A DNA stretch of 63,931 nt, taken from the IMG/VR virus record IMGVR_UViG_3300032893_001611, positions 1 to 63,931 of that record, one strand, 5' to 3'. The notes below the pieces were generated by a model. It was not told the DNA's origin. It saw only the letters and a program-made list of their open reading frames with translations, and did no database searches. The position numbers and the translations under genes are program-made. The DNA is from a virus. Taxonomy: Duplodnaviria; Caudoviricetes. Shown in pieces: positions 53 to 63,869 of this stretch. Each line of letters opens with the position of its first letter. Positions within the stretch are counted from its first letter, which is position 1.

Positions 53-128
53 GGCCAGGTAGCTCAGTTGGTAGAGCGCAGCCCTGAAAAGGCTGGCGTC
101 GGCGGTTCGATTCCGTCCCTGGCCACCA
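53..128 (+). tRNA. tRNA-Phe (GAA), integration target
   Basis: 76-nt cloverleaf GGCCAGG...CCTGGCCACCA; anticodon stem CAGCC/GGCTG with loop CTGAAAA (GAA at 86-88); T-loop GTTCGATTC; encoded CCA. Confidence 0.98.
79..127 (+). repeat. attL core, 49-bp direct repeat (3' part of tRNA-Phe)
   Basis: CAGCCCTGAAAAGGCTGGCGTCGGCGGTTCGATTCCGTCCCTGGCCACC is identical to 63821-63869. Confidence 0.97.
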
Positions 129-163
129 TGTTTTCAAGACCTTACCGACACCCCAGAACGCAG

Positions 164-183
164 TTTCATTCCATTTCATTCCA
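164..183 (+). repeat. Putative integrase arm-type sites (TTTCATTCCA x2)
   Basis: Tandem 10-mer; the same ATTCCA core occurs three times at 63718-63747, so both arms of the reconstituted attP carry it. Confidence 0.6.
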
Positions 184-399
184 AAATTTTGGCGCGCAGC
201 GACCAGCCTCCGGGATGAAGTGCGGTCTGGACCTCTCTCGGAGCCGCCACCTTTTCAAAACGGACGTCCGGCGACCTCGACGAAATCCCTAGACCCTGTC
301 TTTACCCGTCACCAACCAGACCGCATCCTACGGCCCTTAAAATCGAAAACGCCAGCCCGCTTTACAGAAAGTTAAGAAATCCCCGTCAGAATTAGGGAC

Positions 400-1242
400 A
401 TGGACAAGGAACCCGACCTGAGCGACGACGAGCTGCTGGCGATCCCGGAGGACGATGTTCCGACCGGTGGCATCGCGCGCCTGTGGTCGGTGCGGTCCGA
501 GCAACGGCACCTGCACGACCTCGCGGAGCTGGCGGCCGAGAAGGCCGGCGTCGCGCGCCCGTTCATGCTGTTCGAGGACCAGACGCCGGAGGCCAGGCGC
601 CGCCGCGACGAGGAACGCCGGCGCGAGGAAGAATACGAGATGGCGATGATGCAGGTCCACGAGCGCCAGGACCGGCTGCTGCGCAGCATCGAGGCAGCGC
701 AGCGCGAGAACGACCACCGCCGCAAGGAGATCGAGGACAACGCCCTGCGCCTGAAGGACGGCCGCCATGTCTACGTCGACGGCGACCACTACCGCGACGC
801 GCAGGGGAGGGTGCTGACCGGGGCCGACGCGGAGGAAGCCGCGAAGCTGCACCGCCTGCACCCCGAGGCGTCGACGTGGCAGGAGAAGGAGGAAGCCGAG
901 CGGCAGGCCGAGGCGCTCCGCCGGCAGAAGGAGCAGTTGCTGAAGGACCGCGACAGCGGCATCCCGCCTGAGGAAGCGGGCAAGCGGCTGGACGGTTACG
1001 AAAAGGAATTCGCTCAGGAAGCCGCCGCGCGGCAGCACGAGATGCAGGCGCAGGTAACACCGGACTACGGCAGCGCCGATTATTCCGACATGCTCTCGTC
1101 GGTCCCGGCCTTTACCGCCGCCGCGCAGATTGCTTCACATGAAACAATCGGACAACCCGCTGACACTGAAACCGAATCCTCTACCGCCGACGCTAAAAAA
1201 GCGCCCCGGCCTTCCGGCCAGGGCGCGTTGAAACTTGGGTAA
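400..1242 (+). CDS. Hypothetical charged/coiled-coil protein
   Basis: 280-aa ORF, AGGGA RBS, GC3-rich codons, E/R/Q-rich helices. Confidence 0.75.
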   Translation: MDKEPDLSDDELLAIPEDDVPTGGIARLWSVRSEQRHLHDLAELAAEKAGVARPFMLFEDQTPEARRRRDEERRREEEYEMAMMQVHERQDRLLRSIEAAQRENDHRRKEIEDNALRLKDGRHVYVDGDHYRDAQGRVLTGADAEEAAKLHRLHPEASTWQEKEEAERQAEALRRQKEQLLKDRDSGIPPEEAGKRLDGYEKEFAQEAAARQHEMQAQVTPDYGSADYSDMLSSVPAFTAAAQIASHETIGQPADTETESSTADAKKAPRPSGQGALKLG

Positions 1243-1296
1243 AGTTTGCGGCACTCTCTCCGCCCGTCACGCATGACCACCGTTTAGAAGTGGCAT

Positions 1297-1797
1297 AAAG
1301 GTAGCGTTGACCGTTGCTAGGGTTTCCGAGCTTCCTTCGCGGGCCTAGCCCCTCTCGCAGACGCCTGACACGACAAGCCTGCGATTTTTACCAGCCTTGC
1401 GGCCGCGTGTGATTCATAACGGGCCACGGGCTGAACCCCTTACGTGGCTGGGAGCCTTGCGAGCTGTACCAGATGGCCCTCTCTGAGGTATTCGAATTCA
1501 GTCCTACACTCTGGCAGTAGGCGCCCCTCGCGGCCCGTTTTAAGCGTTGGCCCGGACGAGGATTTGTCTCGCTTCACCGCATTTTATTTCGGTCGTCATC
1601 CCGGCCGTCTATCCATGGTCCGGCCAGTCCCCGAGCTCAAACGGTGCCTTGAGCTAACTCGAGTTTCAAACAAGGGGCCGGATCGATAGTACCGGCTCTG
1701 GCTATTCTCCCGACATCATTCCTTTCGGAACATACAGTCTGCGGGTCTTCGACCAGCCTTCTAGCAGACTTTCAGGCGTGACAACCACGCTGCCCTT
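1297..1797 (-). ncRNA. Candidate large structured ncRNA (~500 nt)
   Basis: No credible ORF; terminal helix 1797-1781/1314-1297, many nested 7-11 bp helices, GAAA and GCAA tetraloops and G-U pairs on the minus strand, upstream promoter. Confidence 0.7.
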
Positions 1798-1805
1798 GCA
1801 GAATC

Positions 1806-1835
1806 TGTCTACCAGCCAGTGATTCGCCGTGTCAA
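1806..1835 (-). promoter_or_regulatory. Putative sigma70 promoter for the ncRNA (TTGACA-N18-TAGACA)
   Basis: Perfect -35 at 1835-1830; -10-like hexamer at 1811-1806; predicted start just before the terminal helix at 1797. Confidence 0.5.
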
Positions 1836-1838
1836 GCC

Positions 1839-2186
1839 TTAGTCGTCATCAGCAATTCCTTCAGGAAGCGGCGGCAGCGGGACCGACTTACCAGCCAGAG
1901 AATGAGTGCAGTCGCGACAAAAGTTGAGGACACCAGCCGTCAAAACGTAATGGCAGATGAACGGAATGGTGTTGCCTTTGTTGTCTCGGACGAATTCCCC
2001 CGTCCATTTGCCAGCAACCTTGACCGTTTGTACTCCGGAATGCTTGAAACTCGGCGTGAAAGTCGGTTTTTCAAGGTTGCCGTCAAACTTCCAGCTATCA
2101 GGCAGTGGATGCATCTCTTCGCAGGCGGGACACCAATGCATGTATTTGCCGACCGCGCGACGTAGAGTGCTGCTGACTTGGTTCAT
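1839..2186 (-). CDS. DUF6527-like Cys/His metal-binding protein
   Basis: HWCPACEEMH...WKFDGNLEKPTFTPS...CHYVLTAG..FCRDCTHSLAG motif pattern. Confidence 0.75.
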   Translation of the reverse strand: MNQVSSTLRRAVGKYMHWCPACEEMHPLPDSWKFDGNLEKPTFTPSFKHSGVQTVKVAGKWTGEFVRDNKGNTIPFICHYVLTAGVLNFCRDCTHSLAGKSVPLPPLPEGIADDD

Positions 2187-2524
2187 CGAACCCTCCGCTT
2201 ATATTTTTCGGGCGCACGGCCGTGCTCTTTATTGAAGGAATTCAAACGCGTTTAAATCCGCTCCATTTTCCTCGAACCCCACTTTGCAGACCGTCACTGC
2301 GCGTCAAGGGTCGAGATGAACGGCAACCCCGGCCGCCCTTGACTCAGCTACGTGACGGCCTGCTTCACCCCTCTTTCCCATTAAGAGGAAAATGGAGGTT
2401 TTAAAACGCTATGAAGCTACAGAAGAAAGAACAGACCGGGCGGGACGGCGAGGCCGCGCCCGTGGCTTGCATAATTATGGAAGATTCCCGCAACAGATTG
2501 AAAGGAATCGGGTTATACTCGGGT

Positions 2525-15488: not shown

Positions 15489-17924
15489 TTAATAACGCGG
15501 CACAGGCGCGGAGACTTGCTGCCGCATGGCGGCCGAGAACCGCGAGAGCGGATTTTTCGCGTTGGCTTCCATCAGTTTGTCGATCGTCACCAGCAGCTGG
15601 GCGGAGCCATCCGGACCGCGCTGCGCCTGTGTGCTGACCTGCACGGGCGCGTTGTTGTTGATGGTCACCTGCATGCCGCCGCCGTTGTTCTCGCCGGCGG
15701 GAATGATCTTCTCGCCCTTGTGGATCTGGGCAACCATATCGTACGGCACGTAATCGGTGCCGACGTCGAACGACGGCAGGCTGAGGCCGCCGACAATGGA
15801 GCTGCCGCCCTGGTTCCAGTTGATTATCTCGGGACCGGTCGACAGGCCGAGGAAACCCGAGAGCGCGCTGAACAGCGGCTTCTCGATCTCAGACCGGATC
15901 TCCAGCCGAGCGAAATCCGCGATCATCGAATTGACCAGGTCCTTGACCGAGAGCTTGCCCGTGGTCGCGAACTCGACGAGCGCATCCTCGCCTTTCTGGA
16001 ACGCGTCGACAACCGTCTGGCTGGCGAGGTCGCTGACGTCGTTCATTTCCTGCTGGACCTTCAGAATCCCGGTATGGAAGCCGCCGCTCGCGGTCTTGTC
16101 CAGTTCGGACATCGAGATCTGCGCCTGCAGCATCGCGTCGCCGTACTGTTTCGTCGTGATGATCCCCTTGGCGAGCAGGGCGTTGAGGCCCGTCATGGTC
16201 GCCTGCGCCTTGCGGCCGGGACCGACGATATCGTTGAAGCTGCCGACGATCGAATCCTCGACCGATGCGCCTGTGTCGTTCATTTCCTGCTGCACCTTGA
16301 GCAGACCGGCCGTGATCCCGCCGGAAACCGTCTTGTCAAGCTCGGCCATCGATATCTTGGCGGCCAGCATCTGGTCGGAATAATTGCGCGCTGTGATCAG
16401 GCCTTTGCCCATCAGCACGTCGAGGGCGTCGATCCTGACCTGCAGCTTCTGCGCCGCGCCTGTGGTTTCCTCCCAGATGCCGACAAGCGACTGCTCGGCG
16501 GTGTTGCCGACGTCCTTCATCTCCATGTTGATTTTCATCAGGCCGGCGAGGAAGCCGCCCGACTCGGTCTTGTCCAGCTCCGCGACCTGAAGATTGAGCT
16601 TGTCCAGCGCATCGTTGTACTGGTCGGCCGTGATCTTGCCATCCCTGTACAGGATGTTGAGATCGGAGAGCGTCTGCTGATAATCCAGCAGCGGGCCGAC
16701 GATGGATTTCAACAGCTCCTTCTGGCGCTTTTCTGCTTCCTCCAGCGCCGAAATGCCTTCCAAATTCGGCGGCGGAATCGAAGACGGCCTTTTCTGCACA
16801 TTGGCCTTTGCGCGGGCGTCGGCGTCCTTCTGGATCTTGTCGATCTTAGAACGCGTGCTTACGAAGGTCTCAGCCTCTTTGTTCAGTGCGTCCAGCGCAG
16901 CCATGTCTTTATTGAGGAACGATTGATCGGACCAGGCCATGTCCTGCATGTCCTCGGCCATGCCGGTAAAATGCTTGCCGATCACCGGCAGCTTCTCGGC
17001 CATCTTGAGCGTGTTTGCTATGTCCTGGTCGGCACCCATGACCATCTTGTCGATGCCGACCGTGACCTCGCCGAACAGCTCCCGCATGCCGAGGACGCCC
17101 TCGCGGACGACATCGATGGCATCGGCGGCGACGCCGATACCATCGGCGACGGCCTTGCCGAAGTCGGCGGCGTCGGCGCTCGAATCTATGAAATCGTTCC
17201 CGACCTGCGTCACCAGCGGCGACAGCTGTACGTCGATGGCGTTGCCGAGGCCCTTGACGATATCCTTGACCCGGCCCATCGTATTGCCGGCTTCGTCGAC
17301 CTTCTTGGCGTCGACCTCGCTCAGCGAGAGGTTGAACTTGTCGTTGAAGGCGCGGGCGTCGTCGAGCTTGGCCTGGTAATCGACGAGCATGTCGATGACG
17401 GCACGGCCTTCCTTGCCGTACAGCTTGGTCGCCAGCGTCGTGCGCTCGGTCGGATTCTCCATGCCGGCGAGGGCCTGGGCCATCTTCTCGAACTGCTTGT
17501 CGGGCGAGAGCTGGATCACGTCCCGCCAGTTCAGGCCGAGCGCCTTGAAGATGTTCTGAAACTGCGTCGATCCGTTCGCGGCTTCCAGCAGCGCCTGCTG
17601 CGTCTTTGTTATGGCCTTCGCCAGCCCCTCCTGGTCGACCCCCGCCTCTGACGCCACGCGGCTCATGGCGCTATATTCGCGGCTGGCTATGCCGAGGCTC
17701 TCGGCCTGCCGGTCGGTCGCGACGATCGACTGCCCTTGCGTCAAGGTGAGGTACTTGAAGCCGTCGGCGAGGTCGCGTATGGCCGTCTCGGTCGCATTGC
17801 TGTAGATCGTCGCCTTCGCGACATCCTGGAACGACAGCATCGACTTCGAGGCGCGCTTCATCCCCGACTCGAAATCGGCGGTGTCCGCGAAGAGATAGGC
17901 CGTGAGTCTACCGACTACGCTCAT
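15489..17924 (-). CDS. Tail tape measure protein
   Basis: 811 aa helical; ADTADFESGMKRA; LVEFATTGKLSVKDLVNSMIADFARL; three 79-aa internal repeats. Confidence 0.93.
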   Translation of the reverse strand: MSVVGRLTAYLFADTADFESGMKRASKSMLSFQDVAKATIYSNATETAIRDLADGFKYLTLTQGQSIVATDRQAESLGIASREYSAMSRVASEAGVDQEGLAKAITKTQQALLEAANGSTQFQNIFKALGLNWRDVIQLSPDKQFEKMAQALAGMENPTERTTLATKLYGKEGRAVIDMLVDYQAKLDDARAFNDKFNLSLSEVDAKKVDEAGNTMGRVKDIVKGLGNAIDVQLSPLVTQVGNDFIDSSADAADFGKAVADGIGVAADAIDVVREGVLGMRELFGEVTVGIDKMVMGADQDIANTLKMAEKLPVIGKHFTGMAEDMQDMAWSDQSFLNKDMAALDALNKEAETFVSTRSKIDKIQKDADARAKANVQKRPSSIPPPNLEGISALEEAEKRQKELLKSIVGPLLDYQQTLSDLNILYRDGKITADQYNDALDKLNLQVAELDKTESGGFLAGLMKINMEMKDVGNTAEQSLVGIWEETTGAAQKLQVRIDALDVLMGKGLITARNYSDQMLAAKISMAELDKTVSGGITAGLLKVQQEMNDTGASVEDSIVGSFNDIVGPGRKAQATMTGLNALLAKGIITTKQYGDAMLQAQISMSELDKTASGGFHTGILKVQQEMNDVSDLASQTVVDAFQKGEDALVEFATTGKLSVKDLVNSMIADFARLEIRSEIEKPLFSALSGFLGLSTGPEIINWNQGGSSIVGGLSLPSFDVGTDYVPYDMVAQIHKGEKIIPAGENNGGGMQVTINNNAPVQVSTQAQRGPDGSAQLLVTIDKLMEANAKNPLSRFSAAMRQQVSAPVPRY

Positions 17925-22550: not shown

Positions 22551-22870
22551 CAGGCCATCGACGGATCGCGAATGGTCGACAGGAGCCCTATGACCGCTCC
22601 GGGCAGTTTCCCGTCGCCCCAATCATCGCCGCCGCCGTCCCGGTCGCGATAGAGCACGCCGGTCAGGTAAAGAACAGATTTCTTGACCAGCGCCGGAATG
22701 TTCTCCGCGATGATCTCGCCGGCGGAATCGAAATACGCGTCCGGGTGATCGAGATAGTTCAGGACCGCTTCACTCGCCGCCTCGATCTTCAGCTCGACGT
22801 CGCCCTGGTCGTCGTCGCTGTCGAGCCGCAGATGATCGCGGGCCTCTTCGTAGGTCACAAGCGAAATCAT
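22550..22870 (-). CDS. Head-tail connector (gp6-like)
   Basis: LVTYEEARDHLRLD...IEAASEAVLNYL...LY.DR. Confidence 0.9.
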   Translation of the reverse strand: MISLVTYEEARDHLRLDSDDDQGDVELKIEAASEAVLNYLDHPDAYFDSAGEIIAENIPALVKKSVLYLTGVLYRDRDGGGDDWGDGKLPGAVIGLLSTIRDPSMA

Positions 22871-23934
22871 CAGGCCTTGTCCTTCCCGTCAGCGCCGCGC
22901 TTGACCGCGAGGGTCCAGCTTTTCGCACCCGAAGCGGGCCGTTCGTCGGTCTTTTCGTTGCAGTGGAACAGGCTGCCGGCGAACGTCACGCAATCGCCGC
23001 GCAGATACGTCTTGCCCGCCACGTAGACGCCGCGATAGATCATGCACGGGATCTCGAACGATTTCTCTTTCACGCTGTCGTCGGCCATCTCCTCGCGCAG
23101 CGTGATGGTCCGTTCACCGTCGTGCGCGATCGTGAGCGCCTTGCGGCCGTTGAGGATCAGCTGCCAGTCGGTGCCGCCCTTCGAGCGCCACAGGCCGCCT
23201 TTATCAGCGGCGAAAACACCCTTCCGGTAGGTTTTCTCGGGGTCGATCGACCCCAGAACCTCGATTTCTGCGGCATCACGGCCGTCAATCCCGTCCCGGC
23301 CGTCCTTGCCGTCGCGCCCGTCGCGGCCGTCCTTGCCTGATTCGCCATCCTTGCCGGGATCTCCCTTTTCGCCCTTCTGGCCCTGAGTGCCAACGTCGCC
23401 CTTAAGGCCTTTCTCTCCGGGCTGGCCTTCGGCACCATCACGGCCCGGCTTGCCGTCGACACCGTCGCGCCCGTCCTTGCCGGGAGCCCCCGGCTCGCCT
23501 TTTTCACCGGGCTTGCCGTCGACACCGTCGCGCCCGTCCTTGCCGGGACTGCCGGGATCTCCGTTTTCGCCCGGTTTTCCGTCGATTCCGTCCTTGCCGG
23601 GTGTCCCAGGGTCGCCTTTTTCGCCCTTTTCACCGGGTTTTCCGTCAATTCCGTCCCTGCCCGGCGCGCCATCCTTGCCATCGATGCCATTGCGGCCGTC
23701 GACGCCATCCTTCCCCGGAGCGCCCGGCTCGCCTTTTTCACCCGGCTTGCCGTCGACGCCATCGCGGCCATCCTTGCCAGGAGCGCCGTCCTTGCCGTCG
23801 AGGCCGGTCTCGCCTTTCTCGCCGCGCTGCGGCGCGCGGGCTTCCAGCGCGACGATCCGCTCTGCCAGCGGCTTCAGGGCGCGCGCGATGTAGTCCTGCA
23901 CGCCGGCGACGAACTTTTCAGGGTCAAATTTCAC
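22870..23934 (-). CDS. Collagen-like (Gly-X-Y) head-associated protein
   Basis: About 60 G-X-Y triplets (GKDG, GEKG); C-terminal YRGVY..G..Y..GD.VTF.GSLFHC...WTLAVKRG. Confidence 0.88.
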   Translation of the reverse strand: MKFDPEKFVAGVQDYIARALKPLAERIVALEARAPQRGEKGETGLDGKDGAPGKDGRDGVDGKPGEKGEPGAPGKDGVDGRNGIDGKDGAPGRDGIDGKPGEKGEKGDPGTPGKDGIDGKPGENGDPGSPGKDGRDGVDGKPGEKGEPGAPGKDGRDGVDGKPGRDGAEGQPGEKGLKGDVGTQGQKGEKGDPGKDGESGKDGRDGRDGKDGRDGIDGRDAAEIEVLGSIDPEKTYRKGVFAADKGGLWRSKGGTDWQLILNGRKALTIAHDGERTITLREEMADDSVKEKSFEIPCMIYRGVYVAGKTYLRGDCVTFAGSLFHCNEKTDERPASGAKSWTLAVKRGADGKDKA

Positions 23935-31611: not shown

Positions 31612-32860
31612 GGTCGTTTCCCTCTGGTTGAACTGCATCAGCCGCCTGCGGCTGAAGGATGTTGTCGAACAAAACCGATTGCTCCGATGCCTGATGCTTT
31701 CCGCGCATGACATCGTCGATCTGCCGCAGCGTCTCGGCCTTCTGTGCGGGCGTCCTGCGGCTGAGGTCGCCGGCGGGATGATGCGGGCTGTCGGTGTAGG
31801 CATCGCGCGGCGGCGCCGTCGGCAGGTACCGGAATTCACGGCCCATGATCGCGGCAAGCCGCGAGCCGCAGTTTTTCTCGATCCATTCGGCGACGTAGGC
31901 CGATCCACAGTACAGATCGCTCAGGTTCAGCCACACCGCCGAAAACCACTGCGCGTAGACGTCGTCGCCCAGCTGCCGGCGCACTTCATCCAGCCAGGGC
32001 TGCGGCCACAGCGCGCGCGGGCTTGCGGTTTCAGCGGGTGCGGGCGGTTTGTCGCCGGCTGTTCCGGCGCTCCCCTCGCCGAGCCCCTTTTCCTCCGGAC
32101 GGAATACGCACGACCTCAACCAGTTTTCAAGGTGCTTGGTCTTGCAGCGCGTGACGTGGCACTGCTGGTTGTAGACCCGCGCCGCCTTCGCGACCTGGTC
32201 CGCGCTGATGCCGCCTTCACGGATCTCGACGTACTTCGCCTCGCCCTGCCGATAATCGCCCTTGGTCATCTCGAACGGCGACCACGCCTCGAAAAGTTTT
32301 TCGAAGTCGGCCTTGATCTCAGCAAGGGGGATTATGGGGGTTTTCTTAGAAGAGGATTCTAAGAAAGAATCGGGCGAACTCAGTTCGTGTTTAATACGAA
32401 CTGAGTTCGTGTTCGCGTCGTCCGGCGAAACCGAACTGGGTTCGTTCTCAATACGAACTGGGTTCGTATTGGCGTCGTTCCCCGAATACGAACTGAGTTC
32501 GTGTTCGGACGTCTTCTTCCGGTACGCGTCTATGACCGGCTCGGCAGCGCTCTCGATGGCTGCCTTGATGTTTTCAATGTTGAGCTTGTAGATGCGCGCC
32601 CGGATGTACTTGCCATCCTTCCGCAGCGACGCCTCCAGCTCGGGGTCCTCGGCGATGATGCCTTTCTCCTCCAGCCGGCGCATGATCTTCCGCGCGCCGT
32701 CCGAGGTTTTGAGCAGCCCGGCGCGGGCATACGTCTCCATCGAAAAATAGATCGACCGGCCTTCGTCCGTCGCCTGGTCCGCGATCTTGAGCAGGATCAG
32801 CCGCTCGGCCGCCGTCTCGGCGGGATAATCCCAGCAGAGCGTTTCCATCTTCTTGCTCAT
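31586..32860 (-). CDS. Replication initiator (N-terminal HTH, internal ori, DnaA-N-like C-domain)
   Basis: ERLILLKIADQATDEG.SIYFS..T; LGDDVYAQWFS...YVAEWIEKN; iterons inside the gene. Confidence 0.82.
   Translation of the reverse strand: MSKKMETLCWDYPAETAAERLILLKIADQATDEGRSIYFSMETYARAGLLKTSDGARKIMRRLEEKGIIAEDPELEASLRKDGKYIRARIYKLNIENIKAAIESAAEPVIDAYRKKTSEHELSSYSGNDANTNPVRIENEPSSVSPDDANTNSVRIKHELSSPDSFLESSSKKTPIIPLAEIKADFEKLFEAWSPFEMTKGDYRQGEAKYVEIREGGISADQVAKAARVYNQQCHVTRCKTKHLENWLRSCVFRPEEKGLGEGSAGTAGDKPPAPAETASPRALWPQPWLDEVRRQLGDDVYAQWFSAVWLNLSDLYCGSAYVAEWIEKNCGSRLAAIMGREFRYLPTAPPRDAYTDSPHHPAGDLSRRTPAQKAETLRQIDDVMRGKHQASEQSVLFDNILQPQAADAVQPEGNDHGEEKITA
32343..32502. repeat. Phage origin: five palindromic iterons CGAACT(C/G)(A/G)GTTCGT plus AT-rich inverted repeat
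   Basis: Copies at 32375, 32397, 32432, 32454, 32489 (spacing 22/35/22/35); TTCTTAGAA-N5-TTCTAAGAA at 32343-32365. Confidence 0.85.
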
Positions 32861-39299: not shown

Positions 39300-39390
39300 T
39301 GTCCGCGCTCGCCGTCATACCGTCCCCCCCCCCCCCCGAATTTCCGTATCGGGCGCATCCGCGCAGTCGCCCCTGACCTTTTTTGCCGTC

Positions 39391-39440
39391 TCCCTCGTCG
39401 CCGAGGGGATGGCTTCGTGACCCCTCGGCTAGAGGGAAAC
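39391..39440 (+). repeat. Repeated leader hairpin, copy 1
   Basis: GCCGAGGGG-N12-CCCCTCGGC with outer CCCTC/GAGGG; near-identical copy at 41628-41676. Confidence 0.75.
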
Positions 39441-39466
39441 TTCAACCCCAAAAAAGGAGCATATCT

Positions 39467-41604: not shown

Positions 41605-41627
41605 TCCCCGATCATCCTTTGCAGATC

Positions 41628-41676
41628 CCCTCCGCGCCGAGGGGCCGTTTTTGTGACCCCTCGGCTTGAGGGCAAC
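41628..41676 (+). repeat. Repeated leader hairpin, copy 2
   Basis: GCCGAGGGG(41636-44)...CCCCTCGGC(41657-65) TTGAGGGCAAC. Confidence 0.75.
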
Positions 41677-41698
41677 CAGAACAGCAAAGGAACTAGCG

Positions 41699-48310: not shown

Positions 48311-48727
48311 ATGCCCGATAACCTCACGCCCGAGCAGCGCTCCTTCAGCATGTCGCGCATACGCTCGCGCGGCAACAGCTCGACCGAGCTGCGGCTGATC
48401 GAGCTGATGCGGGGCGCGGGCATCAAGGGATGGCGCCGCAAAAGCAAGCTTTGCGGGCGCCCGGATTTCGTTTTTCCCCGCTTTCACATAGCCGTCTTCG
48501 TCGACGGCTGCTATTGGCACGGCTGCCGCAAATGCTCGCTAGGCTCGAAAAGCAACGTCGAATACTGGAAACCAAAGATCGCCGGTAATATCAAGCGCGA
48601 CCGGTCCAACAGCAGGGCGCTGCGCGGTGACGGCTGGCGCGTTGTCAGGATCTGGGAACACGACCTCAAGGCCTCGCCGATGAAGTGCCTGGCGAAGATC
48701 ATGTCTGCCATGCGGCCGCAGGAATGA
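48311..48727 (+). CDS. vsr: Very short patch repair endonuclease
   Basis: D.LTPEQRS..MSRIR...TEL; GRPDFVF; VFVDGCYWHGC; YW..KI..N..RD; GWRVVRIWEH. Confidence 0.95.
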   Translation: MPDNLTPEQRSFSMSRIRSRGNSSTELRLIELMRGAGIKGWRRKSKLCGRPDFVFPRFHIAVFVDGCYWHGCRKCSLGSKSNVEYWKPKIAGNIKRDRSNSRALRGDGWRVVRIWEHDLKASPMKCLAKIMSAMRPQE

Positions 48728-62386: not shown

Positions 62387-62566
62387 CTTCCCCGGCGTCT
62401 AAGCCCTTTAAATCCGCCACATCGCCACGGCAGCGCGAATGCCTTTACAGGCCGCGAGGCCATGAAAGGGACGCCGTCCAATCCGCCAGCGCCGACAGCC
62501 ACGAATGGTGGTAATGTCGTGGTCGAGGCAAATCGCTGCGCGTCATCGAAGGGAGATTTCGATGCA

Positions 62567-63715
62567 ATGGCGCGCAGAAGATTTCAGGACCCGCGGCCCA
62601 GGATAGAGGGTCATTTCTGGGTCCTGTATTACTGGCAGGATGAATTCGAAAACGGACAAAGGAGGCGGCGCAAAAAGAGAGAGAAACTTGCCCCCGCCAC
62701 CGTAAAGGAGCGGGAAGTCCGCAAAATCGCGGCTGAGTTTCTCCGCCCCGTCAATCAGGGCCTTGTGCCCCTCGGAGCGGCGACTAGCTTCGATGACTTC
62801 GTGGACAGCACGTATACTCCGGTCGTTTTACCGACGATGGCCAAGAGCACGCAGGATCGCTACAAAGGCGTGATCAGGAATTACCTCAAGCCCCAATTCG
62901 GCGGTTTGAGCCTGCGCGACATCACGCCCCTGACCACCGACCGGTATTTCTCGGAGCTGGGCAAGACGGGCCTGCAGTACGAATCAATCGACAAGGTCCG
63001 CGATGTCCTCGCCAGCGTTCTGACATCGGCGATCCGCTATGGGTTGCTGATCAAGAACCCGGCGGAAGGCGTGCGGCTCCCGCGCGCGAAGCGGGGCAAA
63101 AAAAGCAAACCGTGGATCACGCAGCAGCAGTTCAACACCCTCACCGGACTGATCGCGGAACCCTACGCCACCATGCTGTACGTGGCGGTCTACACGGGCC
63201 TGCGCGTCAGCGAGTTGATCGGCCTCCGGTGGAACGATGTGCATGAAGACTCGATCACGATCGACGAGCGGTGCTGCCGGGGTGACTGGGGCGCTCCCAA
63301 GAGCGAAGCCAGCAACGACACCATTCCGGTCAACCGCGCCGTGATCGAGCGCATTCTCCGGCTGAAGACCCTGACCGTCGACGTGAAGGCGGGCAGGGCG
63401 GTCAGGCATTACAAGGTCGTGAAGTCCGACGGCCCGAATGACCTGGTCTTTCAGTCCGTGTCGACGGGAGCCGCAATGCGGGACAACAACATCCTCAAGC
63501 GGCACATCAAGCCTGCAGCCCGCAAGCTCGGGCTTGATTTCGTCAACTGGAGATGCCTGCGGACGTCCTACGCCACATGGCTCAAGGAAGCCAAGGCGGA
63601 TATAAAGGATGCGCAGAAGCTCATGCGGCATTCGAGGGCGACAACGACACTGGAAATCTACCAGCAGTTCATTCCGGAGTCGCAGCGGAGAGTTGTGGAC
63701 GGCCTGATCAACTAG
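62567..63715 (+). CDS. int: Tyrosine recombinase / integrase
   Basis: YTGLRVSELIGLRW, PKS, RCLRTSYAT, MRHS...T..IY; beside attR; GGGAG RBS. Confidence 0.96.
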   Translation: MARRRFQDPRPRIEGHFWVLYYWQDEFENGQRRRRKKREKLAPATVKEREVRKIAAEFLRPVNQGLVPLGAATSFDDFVDSTYTPVVLPTMAKSTQDRYKGVIRNYLKPQFGGLSLRDITPLTTDRYFSELGKTGLQYESIDKVRDVLASVLTSAIRYGLLIKNPAEGVRLPRAKRGKKSKPWITQQQFNTLTGLIAEPYATMLYVAVYTGLRVSELIGLRWNDVHEDSITIDERCCRGDWGAPKSEASNDTIPVNRAVIERILRLKTLTVDVKAGRAVRHYKVVKSDGPNDLVFQSVSTGAAMRDNNILKRHIKPAARKLGLDFVNWRCLRTSYATWLKEAKADIKDAQKLMRHSRATTTLEIYQQFIPESQRRVVDGLIN

Positions 63716-63747: not shown

Positions 63748-63820
63748 ATAAAATGGCGGTTTCGAGAGCAAAAAAGGTGAGGGAAGGCAATCAAATCAAC
63801 GGGATGAGAATGGCAGGCCC

Positions 63821-63869
63821 CAGCCCTGAAAAGGCTGGCGTCGGCGGTTCGATTCCGTCCCTGGCCACC
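63821..63869 (+). repeat. attR core (tRNA-Phe 3' fragment)
   Basis: Identical to 79-127; lacks the D arm and 5' acceptor strand. Confidence 0.97.

Follow-up and report, generated by a model that had tools for sequence, protein, structure and literature searches.

The stretch considered here lies on the minus strand near the left end of a prophage carried in IMG/VR record IMGVR_UViG_3300032893_001611 (63,931 bp, completeness estimate 82%; the whole record was analysed and is called the window below). At positions 1297-1835 a preliminary description had proposed one highly structured non-coding RNA of about 500 nucleotides (nt) with a promoter of its own. The present analysis suggests a different picture, in which the stretch probably belongs to a phage non-coding transcript of ~600 nt whose 3' ~110 nt are a diverged copy of a structured module. 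Transcription of the minus strand of 1195-1835 would start at a weak promoter-like sequence and stop at an intrinsic terminator. Only the last ~110 nt of the RNA (1358-1246) would belong to the conserved module family, and the 5' ~440 nt would be lineage-specific filler, including a fragment termed piece A, with no sign of structure. At most loci the module lies in the sense strand of long open reading frames (ORFs), in one fixed frame, as a linker between unrelated protein domains, the in-frame carriers being phage or prophage genes of Alphaproteobacteria, of a verrucomicrobium and of metagenome hosts. In the window and at one further locus (L162) it stands outside any long frame, in what is probably its own promoter-to-terminator unit. 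It may be the RNA form of the module that matters, acting in cis on whichever transcript carries it, either as a signal for processing or stability or as a site bound by a conserved host factor; a cis-acting role of this kind at the RNA level is considered the most likely one. The features of the stretch are as follows.

1801-1835, minus strand: promoter-like sequence (TTGACA 1835-1830, 18-nt spacer, TAGACA 1811-1806, GATTC 1805-1801)
1195-1800, minus strand: putative non-coding transcript of ~600 nt, bracketed by the promoter-like sequence and the terminator, with stops in all frames
1297-1835, minus strand: interval of the preliminary description; helices present, not above shuffles; orphan without the conserved tail
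1574-1667, minus strand: piece A, 98-100% identical in single 151-nt contigs of metagenomes X4 and X5
1246-1358, minus strand: putative diverged, untranslated copy of the module's 3' domain (match to covariance model R1, and assignment by eye)
1358-1349, minus strand: candidate first motif of the module copy, GCGAGAGGGG (assigned by eye)
1349-1344 with 1321-1316, minus strand: candidate helix P3, GCUAGG/CCUAGC (assigned by eye)
1315-1312, minus strand: AACG junction between P3 and P4
1314-1312 or 1307-1304 with 1272-1269, minus strand: candidate short P4, followed by GAC
1263-1260 with 1251-1248, minus strand: P5, GCGG/CCGC, followed by AA
1246-1272, minus strand: core B; its 23-mer 1268-1246 occurs exactly in 48 other loci, and elsewhere it encodes V-T-G-G-E-S-A-A
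1195-1226, minus strand: intrinsic terminator (11-bp stem with 10 G-C pairs, GGAA loop, T-run)

The module is ~90-165 nt long and comprises a long-range helix (P1), the hairpins P3, P4 and P5, and the near-invariant tail GUGACGGGCGGAGAGAGUGCCGCAA. P1 is flanked by the invariant motifs GCGAAAG and GAGUAGG and was found in seven complementary versions. P3 follows GAGUAGG and precedes a (U)GCAAC junction, after which P4 closes immediately ahead of GAC. P3 stays paired through substitutions that change the encoded peptide, reading GAUGCCG/CGGCAUC (peptide VDAGRTAS), GCUGG/CCAGC (VAGDRAPA), GUCGG/CCGAC (GVGDRAPT) or GCCGAUG/CAUCGGC (PADGRSSA). The AGUA/GAA-type internal loop of the module is an RNA motif. 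Folding of six units with RNAalifold returned 34 pairs, 11 of them with compensatory changes. On all 25 sequences, MAFFT/RNAalifold misaligned the variable helices and returned only P5; subgroup folding and a covariance model were used instead. This model of the 3' domain (R1), built from ten ungapped seeds, gave 55 matches. In the R1 alignment 94.5% of cells are paired compared with 75.3% in shuffles, all 17 pairs have changed on both sides, and 113 cells are doubly changed against 29 in shuffles. None of 500 shuffles reached the observed pair counts, and sliding the partners by 1-3 columns left only 23-49% paired. Because many pairs are G-U (one P4 pair is U-G in 16 sequences), the fold belongs to the sense strand. 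Taken together, the pair counts clearly indicate selection on base pairing in the module.

The exact 23-mer of core B was found in 25 metagenome, 8 representative-genome and 15 IMG/VR loci, the identity around it usually spanning 25-30 nt. The genome carriers are three Devosia, a Rhizomicrobium, a Pleomorphomonas, a Tianweitania, an alphaproteobacterial metagenome-assembled genome and the verrucomicrobial Lacunisphaera, and the hosts of the carrier phages include Acidobacteriota, Alphaproteobacteria and Verrucomicrobiota together with metagenome hosts. All five whole-genome carriers hold one or two copies, and within the order around Devosia the module occurs in two of 151 genomes. Its neighbours are phage genes. 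Similarity ends sharply after ...GCCGCAA, with unrelated sequence downstream in most loci, and head-to-tail units were seen at four loci (L155, L170, L158 and L199). Some copies lie beside stable RNA genes: at L169 (1016-1119, minus strand) a tRNA gene with a 13-nt insertion in the anticodon region begins 2 nt past the conserved tail, at L159 (1-62, minus strand) a tRNA-like 5' half follows it, and at L167/L189 the module stands 157 nt after a permuted alphaproteobacterial transfer-messenger RNA (tmRNA) gene. No Rfam family matched any of the 30 module loci scanned, which places the module outside Rfam 15 and thus, by these scans, among uncatalogued sequences. Its core sequence and peptide occur in no paper of the searchable literature; the supplements of phage RNA surveys, for example PMC10690425, might list them.

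At 24 of 43 distinct loci the VTGGESAA frame stays open for at least 100 codons upstream, and in most loci stops interrupt the remaining forward frames after a few codons; at 13 loci and in the window only short frames are present. Where it is in frame, the module encodes the peptide ...MDVTGGESAAT.... Eight module ORFs combine a GapR-type N-terminal domain with a ParB-like or Cys-rich C-terminal domain, core B lying between the two, and across the in-frame copies the flanking contexts differ (GapR, GcrA, ParB-like, Cys-rich and DUF2303). Protein conservation is present on both sides of the module. A protein search returned 23 proteins with the segment, some of them with GapR or GcrA domains. 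In the 16 of these that were aligned, a segment of ~55 residues, ...FQAKASEDNGATG...GE(A/V)SRVDAGRTASATSExMDVTGGESAA, is nearly invariant between unrelated flanks. In the family of one carrier protein, P0004 (9 of 120 listed relatives aligned), the segment occupies a hypervariable linker and is absent or half-present in more distant members; P0025 is shorter than P0004 and yet retains the module, so that it offers no empty site. The N-terminal domain of this family (~150 residues) recurs as an N-terminal extension in many N6-adenine methyltransferases of phages, which belong to MT-A70 and Dam-type Pfam families. In a few proteins the module end is read in a shifted frame, which indicates conservation at the nucleotide level.

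The argument for a transcription unit in the window rests largely on L162, the sole locus that shares both flanks with it (2595-2286 at 78% and 1272-1102 at 79% identity). L162 has TTGACG-N18-TAAATA followed by GATTC at the same relative place as the promoter-like sequence of the window. Past core B it resembles the window in its spacer and has the same terminator, which again lies within the end of the convergent gene. Since the two loci thus agree at both ends of the unit, window 1195-1835 is probably transcribed on its own. The promoter put forward in the preliminary description (TTGACA-N18-TAGACA, 1835-1806) is thus present and has a similarly laid out counterpart, but a consensus scan calls no sigma-70-type site there, TAGACA being without the final T. 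That description had placed the 3' end too early, at 1297: on the minus strand a strong terminator with a T-run stands at 1226-1201, within the 3' end of the convergent 280-amino acid (aa) gene, so any minus-strand transcript would end near 1195. The claim that the stretch is non-coding holds, since all six frames contain stops (5-9 per frame) and GC content shows no codon phase; the flanking genes have 0.83-0.97 G+C at third codon positions (GC3). Between promoter-like sequence and conserved tail, L162 has ~250-260 nt as against ~555 nt in the window, whose stretch is ~300 nt longer and includes piece A in the extra part. The module copy of L162 is also untranslated and keeps the compensated helices GCGGA/UCCGC and AGCCU/AGGCU.

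GANTC-type sites mark methylation-dependent promoters in Alphaproteobacteria. A site of this type, GATTC, directly follows the promoter-like sequences of the window (1801-1805) and of L162 (~940 in the oriented locus), and genes for GapR- or GcrA-like proteins are present in many carriers of the module; in an acidobacterial phage the GATTC may be a coincidence.

The window's own copy of the module was recognised by R1 at 1345-1244 (28.8 bits, expectation value (E) 5.4e-6 in 348 kb). Positions 1272-1246 are identical to the family tail, P5 included, and GCUAGG/CCUAGC, placed by eye, stands where P3 is expected. For P4, a helix of 4 bp (1307-1304 with 1272-1269) is an alternative to the pairing given by the model, with a 35-40-nt insertion between its strands. 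The copy is not translated, its frame carrying stops. R1 gave no other match within 1346-1835. Elsewhere in the window it gave weak matches at 1081-1166 (minus strand, 17.2 bits, E 0.013) and 48330-48410 (minus strand, 16.8 bits, E 0.016), which may be chance or very degenerate copies.

Several points weigh against a transcript with a working module at its 3' end. The R1 score of the window copy is owed mostly to the identical tail. Of the family helices, only two of seven P3 pairs, with a P3 loop of 22 nt, and three of six P4 pairs (1314-1312 with 1271-1269) are aligned in it by the model. The GAGUAGG motif reads GAGAGGGG, and no partner for P1/GCGAAAG could be assigned in the family order. 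By these comparisons the window copy is a poor, diverged member of the family with long insertions. In the family at large, all 48 core B loci were gathered by the exact 23-mer, and the invariance of the tail is therefore partly built in; the alignment used for the pair counts was fitted to R1 and its sequences are related, so that those counts lean towards structure. The strong conservation of the module peptide in the 16 aligned proteins indicates that selection also acts at the protein level. The transcript at 1195-1800 is itself a prediction from sequence, and parts of the stretch occur in five metagenome sequencing runs, none of them recorded as RNA. A role of the module at the DNA level, as a recombination joint or single-strand structure, would also count against the proposal, improbable as that role is judged to be.

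Among the alternatives, the one that survives best treats the stretch as recombination debris, that is, the functionless scar of rearranged and decayed module-bearing genes, transcribed only by read-through from the late operon into the terminator. Prophage cargo ends collect recombination debris, and the contigs that carry piece A give some reason to consider it. In the root run X4 and the soil run X5, window 1574-1662 and 1574-1667 recur with 0 and 2 differences, respectively, and there piece A adjoins 1246-1272 or 1270 directly in the order B then A, whereas in the window A precedes B at a distance of 300 nt. The contig flanks are diverged yet recognisably related. Piece A thus directly follows the module in two other metagenomes, which suggests rearrangement among module-bearing units. 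In these contigs it would close an ORF that runs through B, supplying its final codons (..T-K/E-L/F-ELAQGTV-stop) and its 3' flank. The window would then hold an orphaned C-terminal piece and a truncated module in reversed order. A and B share a reading frame, there are five stops between 1835 and 1297, and the copy, with its long insertions, is without the canonical GAGUAGG. Decay has nevertheless not been uniform, because B (27 of 27 positions, in comparison with copies that look functional) and A (89 of 89 in X4) are identical while the sequence between them is <80% identical, and, unlike near-invariant A and B, the 300 nt separating them in the window are not conserved elsewhere. The promoter-like sequence with GATTC and the order of B, spacer and terminator are moreover conserved in L162, whose copy keeps compensated helices without being translated. 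Debris is accordingly regarded as unlikely, and the untranslated transcript with a module copy at its 3' end is preferred.

Three other results concern the origin of these pieces. The runs X2 and X3 contain only identical pieces, with parts uncovered, and no variants within the interval. To look for a decayed gene, every ORF near B was compared with window 1100-2300 by tblastn; the idea was set aside, as only the B region was hit; one further weak match in that range covers 51 aa of an ORF from L165 (39% identity, E 4.5e-4). The idea that the window holds two partial copies of one repeat was likewise dropped, the alignment scores being within the shuffle range.

A second alternative places the function of the module in DNA, as a recombination joint or the end of a mobile cassette that is tolerated in frame as Rickettsia palindromic elements are, the pairing then reflecting hairpins of single-stranded DNA. 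The sharp break in homology after ...GCCGCAA, beyond which a tRNA gene (L169), varied C-terminal domains or a terminator may follow, is consistent with this, as are the head-to-tail units, the permuted order in X4 and X5, the presence of the module in some members of a protein family and its absence or half-presence in others, and the proteins that read its end in a shifted frame. On the other side, no transposase, TnpB or integrase accompanies the module (no transposase family emerged from a Pfam scan of 10 neighbouring ORFs and a clustering of ORFs within 3.5 kb at 49 loci), genomes hold only one or two copies, terminal inverted repeats and target duplications were not seen, the internal loop is of an RNA type, and the G-U pairs make the fold specific to the mRNA-sense strand. 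This explanation is considered quite improbable; were it true, very different phages would share a recombination joint marked by the module.

The remaining alternative is the one originally proposed, a new phage-borne class in which the whole 500-600 nt form one large structured RNA closed by long-range helices. The individual observations behind it were largely accurate. The eight listed helices are complementary, seven of them perfectly or with one G-U, the closing helix having strands of unequal length (17 and 18 nt); the two GNRA hairpins were located, one at 1730 and one at 1404; and the minimum free energy (MFE) fold uses several of the helices. The non-coding stretch is unusually long, with promoter- and terminator-like ends. 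It fits no known family, as had been stated: tRNA was the only Rfam match at gathering score in the whole window, and ARAGORN returned only tRNA-Phe and no tmRNA. Rfam 15 includes GOLLD, ROOL, group I/II introns, RNase P, tmRNA, HEARO and the known ribozymes and riboswitches; searching its 4227 models against window 1000-2200 at E<=10 gave only sub-threshold matches. The best of these, CRISPR-DR9 at 1198-1234 on the plus strand, scored 22.3 bits where the cut-off is 45 and corresponds to the terminator hairpin seen from the opposite strand. No array is present, and a solitary CRISPR repeat was rejected. The helix ACGCCUGA/UCAGGCGU (1779-72/1368-61) ends just before the motif where P1 of the family would end, and a P1-like closure around a ~400-nt insertion is conceivable.

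The single nested fold of ~500 nt, on the other hand, did not stand out from chance. The minus strand has an MFE of -185.6 kcal/mol compared with -183.8 +/- 6.6 kcal/mol in dinucleotide shuffles, the control that had been named for it (z -0.27, 37 of 100 shuffles being as good), and the plus strand has z +0.12. The lower energy of the minus strand thus reflects composition and not strand-specific structure, since its own shuffles match it. Sub-pieces range from z +0.9 to -0.56, with the exception of piece A (-1.83, the same on both strands), in which there are two local hairpins. There are 18 stems of at least 7 bp that contain no more than one G-U; shuffles have 18.7 +/- 4.8, 33 of the 60 reaching 18 and 5 of the 60 containing an 11-bp stem. 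The closing helix is incompatible with a hairpin of the conserved family, its 1314-1297 strand comprising the AACG junction and the 5' strand of P4; and among the seven other helices only GCUAGG/CCUAGC falls at a place where the family has one, namely P3.

The homologues that might have revealed covariation were also missing. The collection of homologues by BLASTn that had been suggested yielded none for the interval once the conserved tail was excluded: without its last 30 nt it matched none of 55 element-bearing loci (347 kb) at E<=10, and blastn of the candidate DNA against GenBank phages gave no match. Region 1850-1275 is absent from all 19 viral loci with DUF6527 homologues, the family of the gene just upstream, and from their 19 whole records; the synteny of these loci ends at the DUF6527 stop codon. 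None of 401 sampled Acidobacteriota genomes holds a homologue of 1850-1275, seven giving only 23-35-nt matches (E 0.0025-0.009); the two short B-like matches inspected both lay in unrelated coding sequence and were dismissed as chance. An exact 25-mer of piece A was not found in genome, viral or metagenome contigs, nor was the B-to-A junction pattern found in viral contigs. By these searches the interval proper (1297-1835) is orphan sequence. The complementarity is real and lies in a truly non-coding stretch, and a large ornate RNA is not supported. With fold and stem counts at shuffle level (an 11-bp stem appearing in 8% of shuffles), a 5' 440 nt without homologue in any searched collection, a relative that manages with ~250 nt and a closing helix at odds with P4, one RNA spanning the whole stretch is very improbable.

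The setting of the stretch is that of an integrated siphovirus-type prophage of an acidobacterium, the relevant features being the following.

53-128, plus strand: tRNA-Phe, attL (Rfam, ARAGORN)
63811-63869: attR, repeat D12 of the tRNA-Phe 3' part
62462-63715: integrase, tyrosine-type, just inside attR
1839-2186, minus strand: upstream gene, 115 aa, DUF6527/phrog_3362, last of the late operon
400-1242, plus strand: convergent gene for a 280-aa acidic protein, GC3 ~0.93 in frame, stop 4 nt from core B

The 3' part of tRNA-Phe is repeated directly (69-127 and 63811-63869, 59 nt, 93% identity, the final 49 nt identical); as this repeat brackets the record and the integrase lies inside its right copy, the record is an integrated prophage with short host flanks. 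Its host is an acidobacterium, because at least 120 contigs carry an identical tRNA-Phe, almost all of them from Acidobacteriota (Terriglobia, Bryobacterales), and the left host flank is 92% identical to one of these contigs. The minus strand carries the terminase, portal, major head and tape-measure genes, the final gene of the operon being that of DUF6527/phrog_3362, and the candidate stretch is placed in the cargo zone between this last late gene and attL. The terminase was of little use as an anchor, with only five relatives (39-56% identity) on short contigs. The convergent 280-aa protein had no Pfam or PHROG match and no relatives in viral or genome contigs; its C-terminus is conserved in L162.

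Further repeats and conserved segments were noted in the window. Window 129-235, ~100 nt after tRNA-Phe, is 76-91% identical to the same place in ~10 Acidobacteriota contigs (L134, L138, L090, L122 and others); it may represent either an att arm that related integrating elements have in common or phage-carried host sequence. Beside the portal gene, 23273-23828 contains dense 9-nt-periodic repeats (D1-D3, D5) within the minus-strand ORF 22870-23934, resembling collagen-like Gly-X-Y repeats. Where the packaging module borders its neighbour, at 32393-32507, the 23-nt sequence AATACGAACTGAGTTCGTGTTCG, which is internally dyad-symmetric, occurs four times at spacings of 35, 22 and 35 nt and looks like an operator or iteron array. 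A 71-nt direct repeat (39382-39452 and 41618-41688, 75% identity, 2.2 kb apart) has a GC-rich hairpin GAGGGG...CCCCTC, and the tape-measure gene has three 100-nt repeats at 237-nt spacing (16007-16580).

Should the module function as RNA, it would be among the few structured RNAs that serve both coding and non-coding settings, and it could offer a handle on module exchange or regulation in phages. A bolder proposal, that the module represents a new class of structured RNA in phages of at least three phyla, occurring as in-frame linkers of early or regulatory proteins and as stand-alone transcripts, is doubtful. Were it true, the near-invariant tail would point to a universally conserved partner, for which the small ribosomal subunit is a candidate, or alternatively to self-processing at the ...GCCGCAA boundary, which abuts the 5' end of a tRNA in L169. 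In the Devosia 16S rRNA gene, 11 nt located ~140 nt from the 3' end are perfectly complementary to the invariant GUGACGGGCGG. This match is no more than an idea, because the raw 11-mer is frequent in GC-rich genomes, with 7-25 occurrences per genome compared with 3-14 for the reversed control.

Among known systems, GOLLD and ROOL share with the stretch a phage or prophage site near a tRNA gene, a non-coding nature and a length of several hundred nt. They differ from it in that the stretch has no conserved large fold, the conserved part being ~110 nt here and 90-165 nt elsewhere. The preliminary description had left the assignment to either family open and suggested a new class of this size; the conserved part proved to be small, to lie mostly outside 1297-1835 and to be normally coding elsewhere. 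A GOLLD/ROOL-like kind was rejected in view of the missing homologues of 1850-1275, the z of -0.27 and an RNA ~300 nt shorter in L162, and that a giant RNA of this kind does not hold is itself worth knowing; the stretch is not one large ornate RNA. The ends of IS200/IS605 elements and the omega RNA scaffolds of TnpB resemble the module in their structured conserved end, sharp 3' boundary and head-to-tail copies. An IS200/IS605 or TnpB-associated RNA was rejected, no TnpA, TnpB or IscB ORF adjoining the copies examined and the copy number being low. An integron attC site was also set aside: inspection of the junctions revealed no paired core sites (RYYYAAC ... GTTRRRY), and the one orientation that gives G|TT would put the conserved 27 nt at the start of the cassette.

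Rickettsia palindromic elements, which are structured repeats lying in frame within genes and present in dozens of copies per genome, come closer. The module resembles them in being short, foldable, in frame in unrelated genes and present at non-coding sites, sometimes beside tRNA or tmRNA genes. It differs from them in its one or two copies per genome, its phage-borne spread across phyla, its GC-rich form, which has several hairpins and is more than a simple palindrome, and its near-invariant 23-27-nt tail, the two being set apart by description and not by sequence. The cis-acting structured RNA motifs of phages (Rfam; PMC10690425) are likewise compact, covarying hairpins shared across unrelated phages, with intergenic copies upstream of genes, whereas most copies of the module lie in translated ORFs in one fixed frame. 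What sets the module apart is that it is kept both in translated frames and as an untranslated unit with a promoter-like sequence and a terminator.

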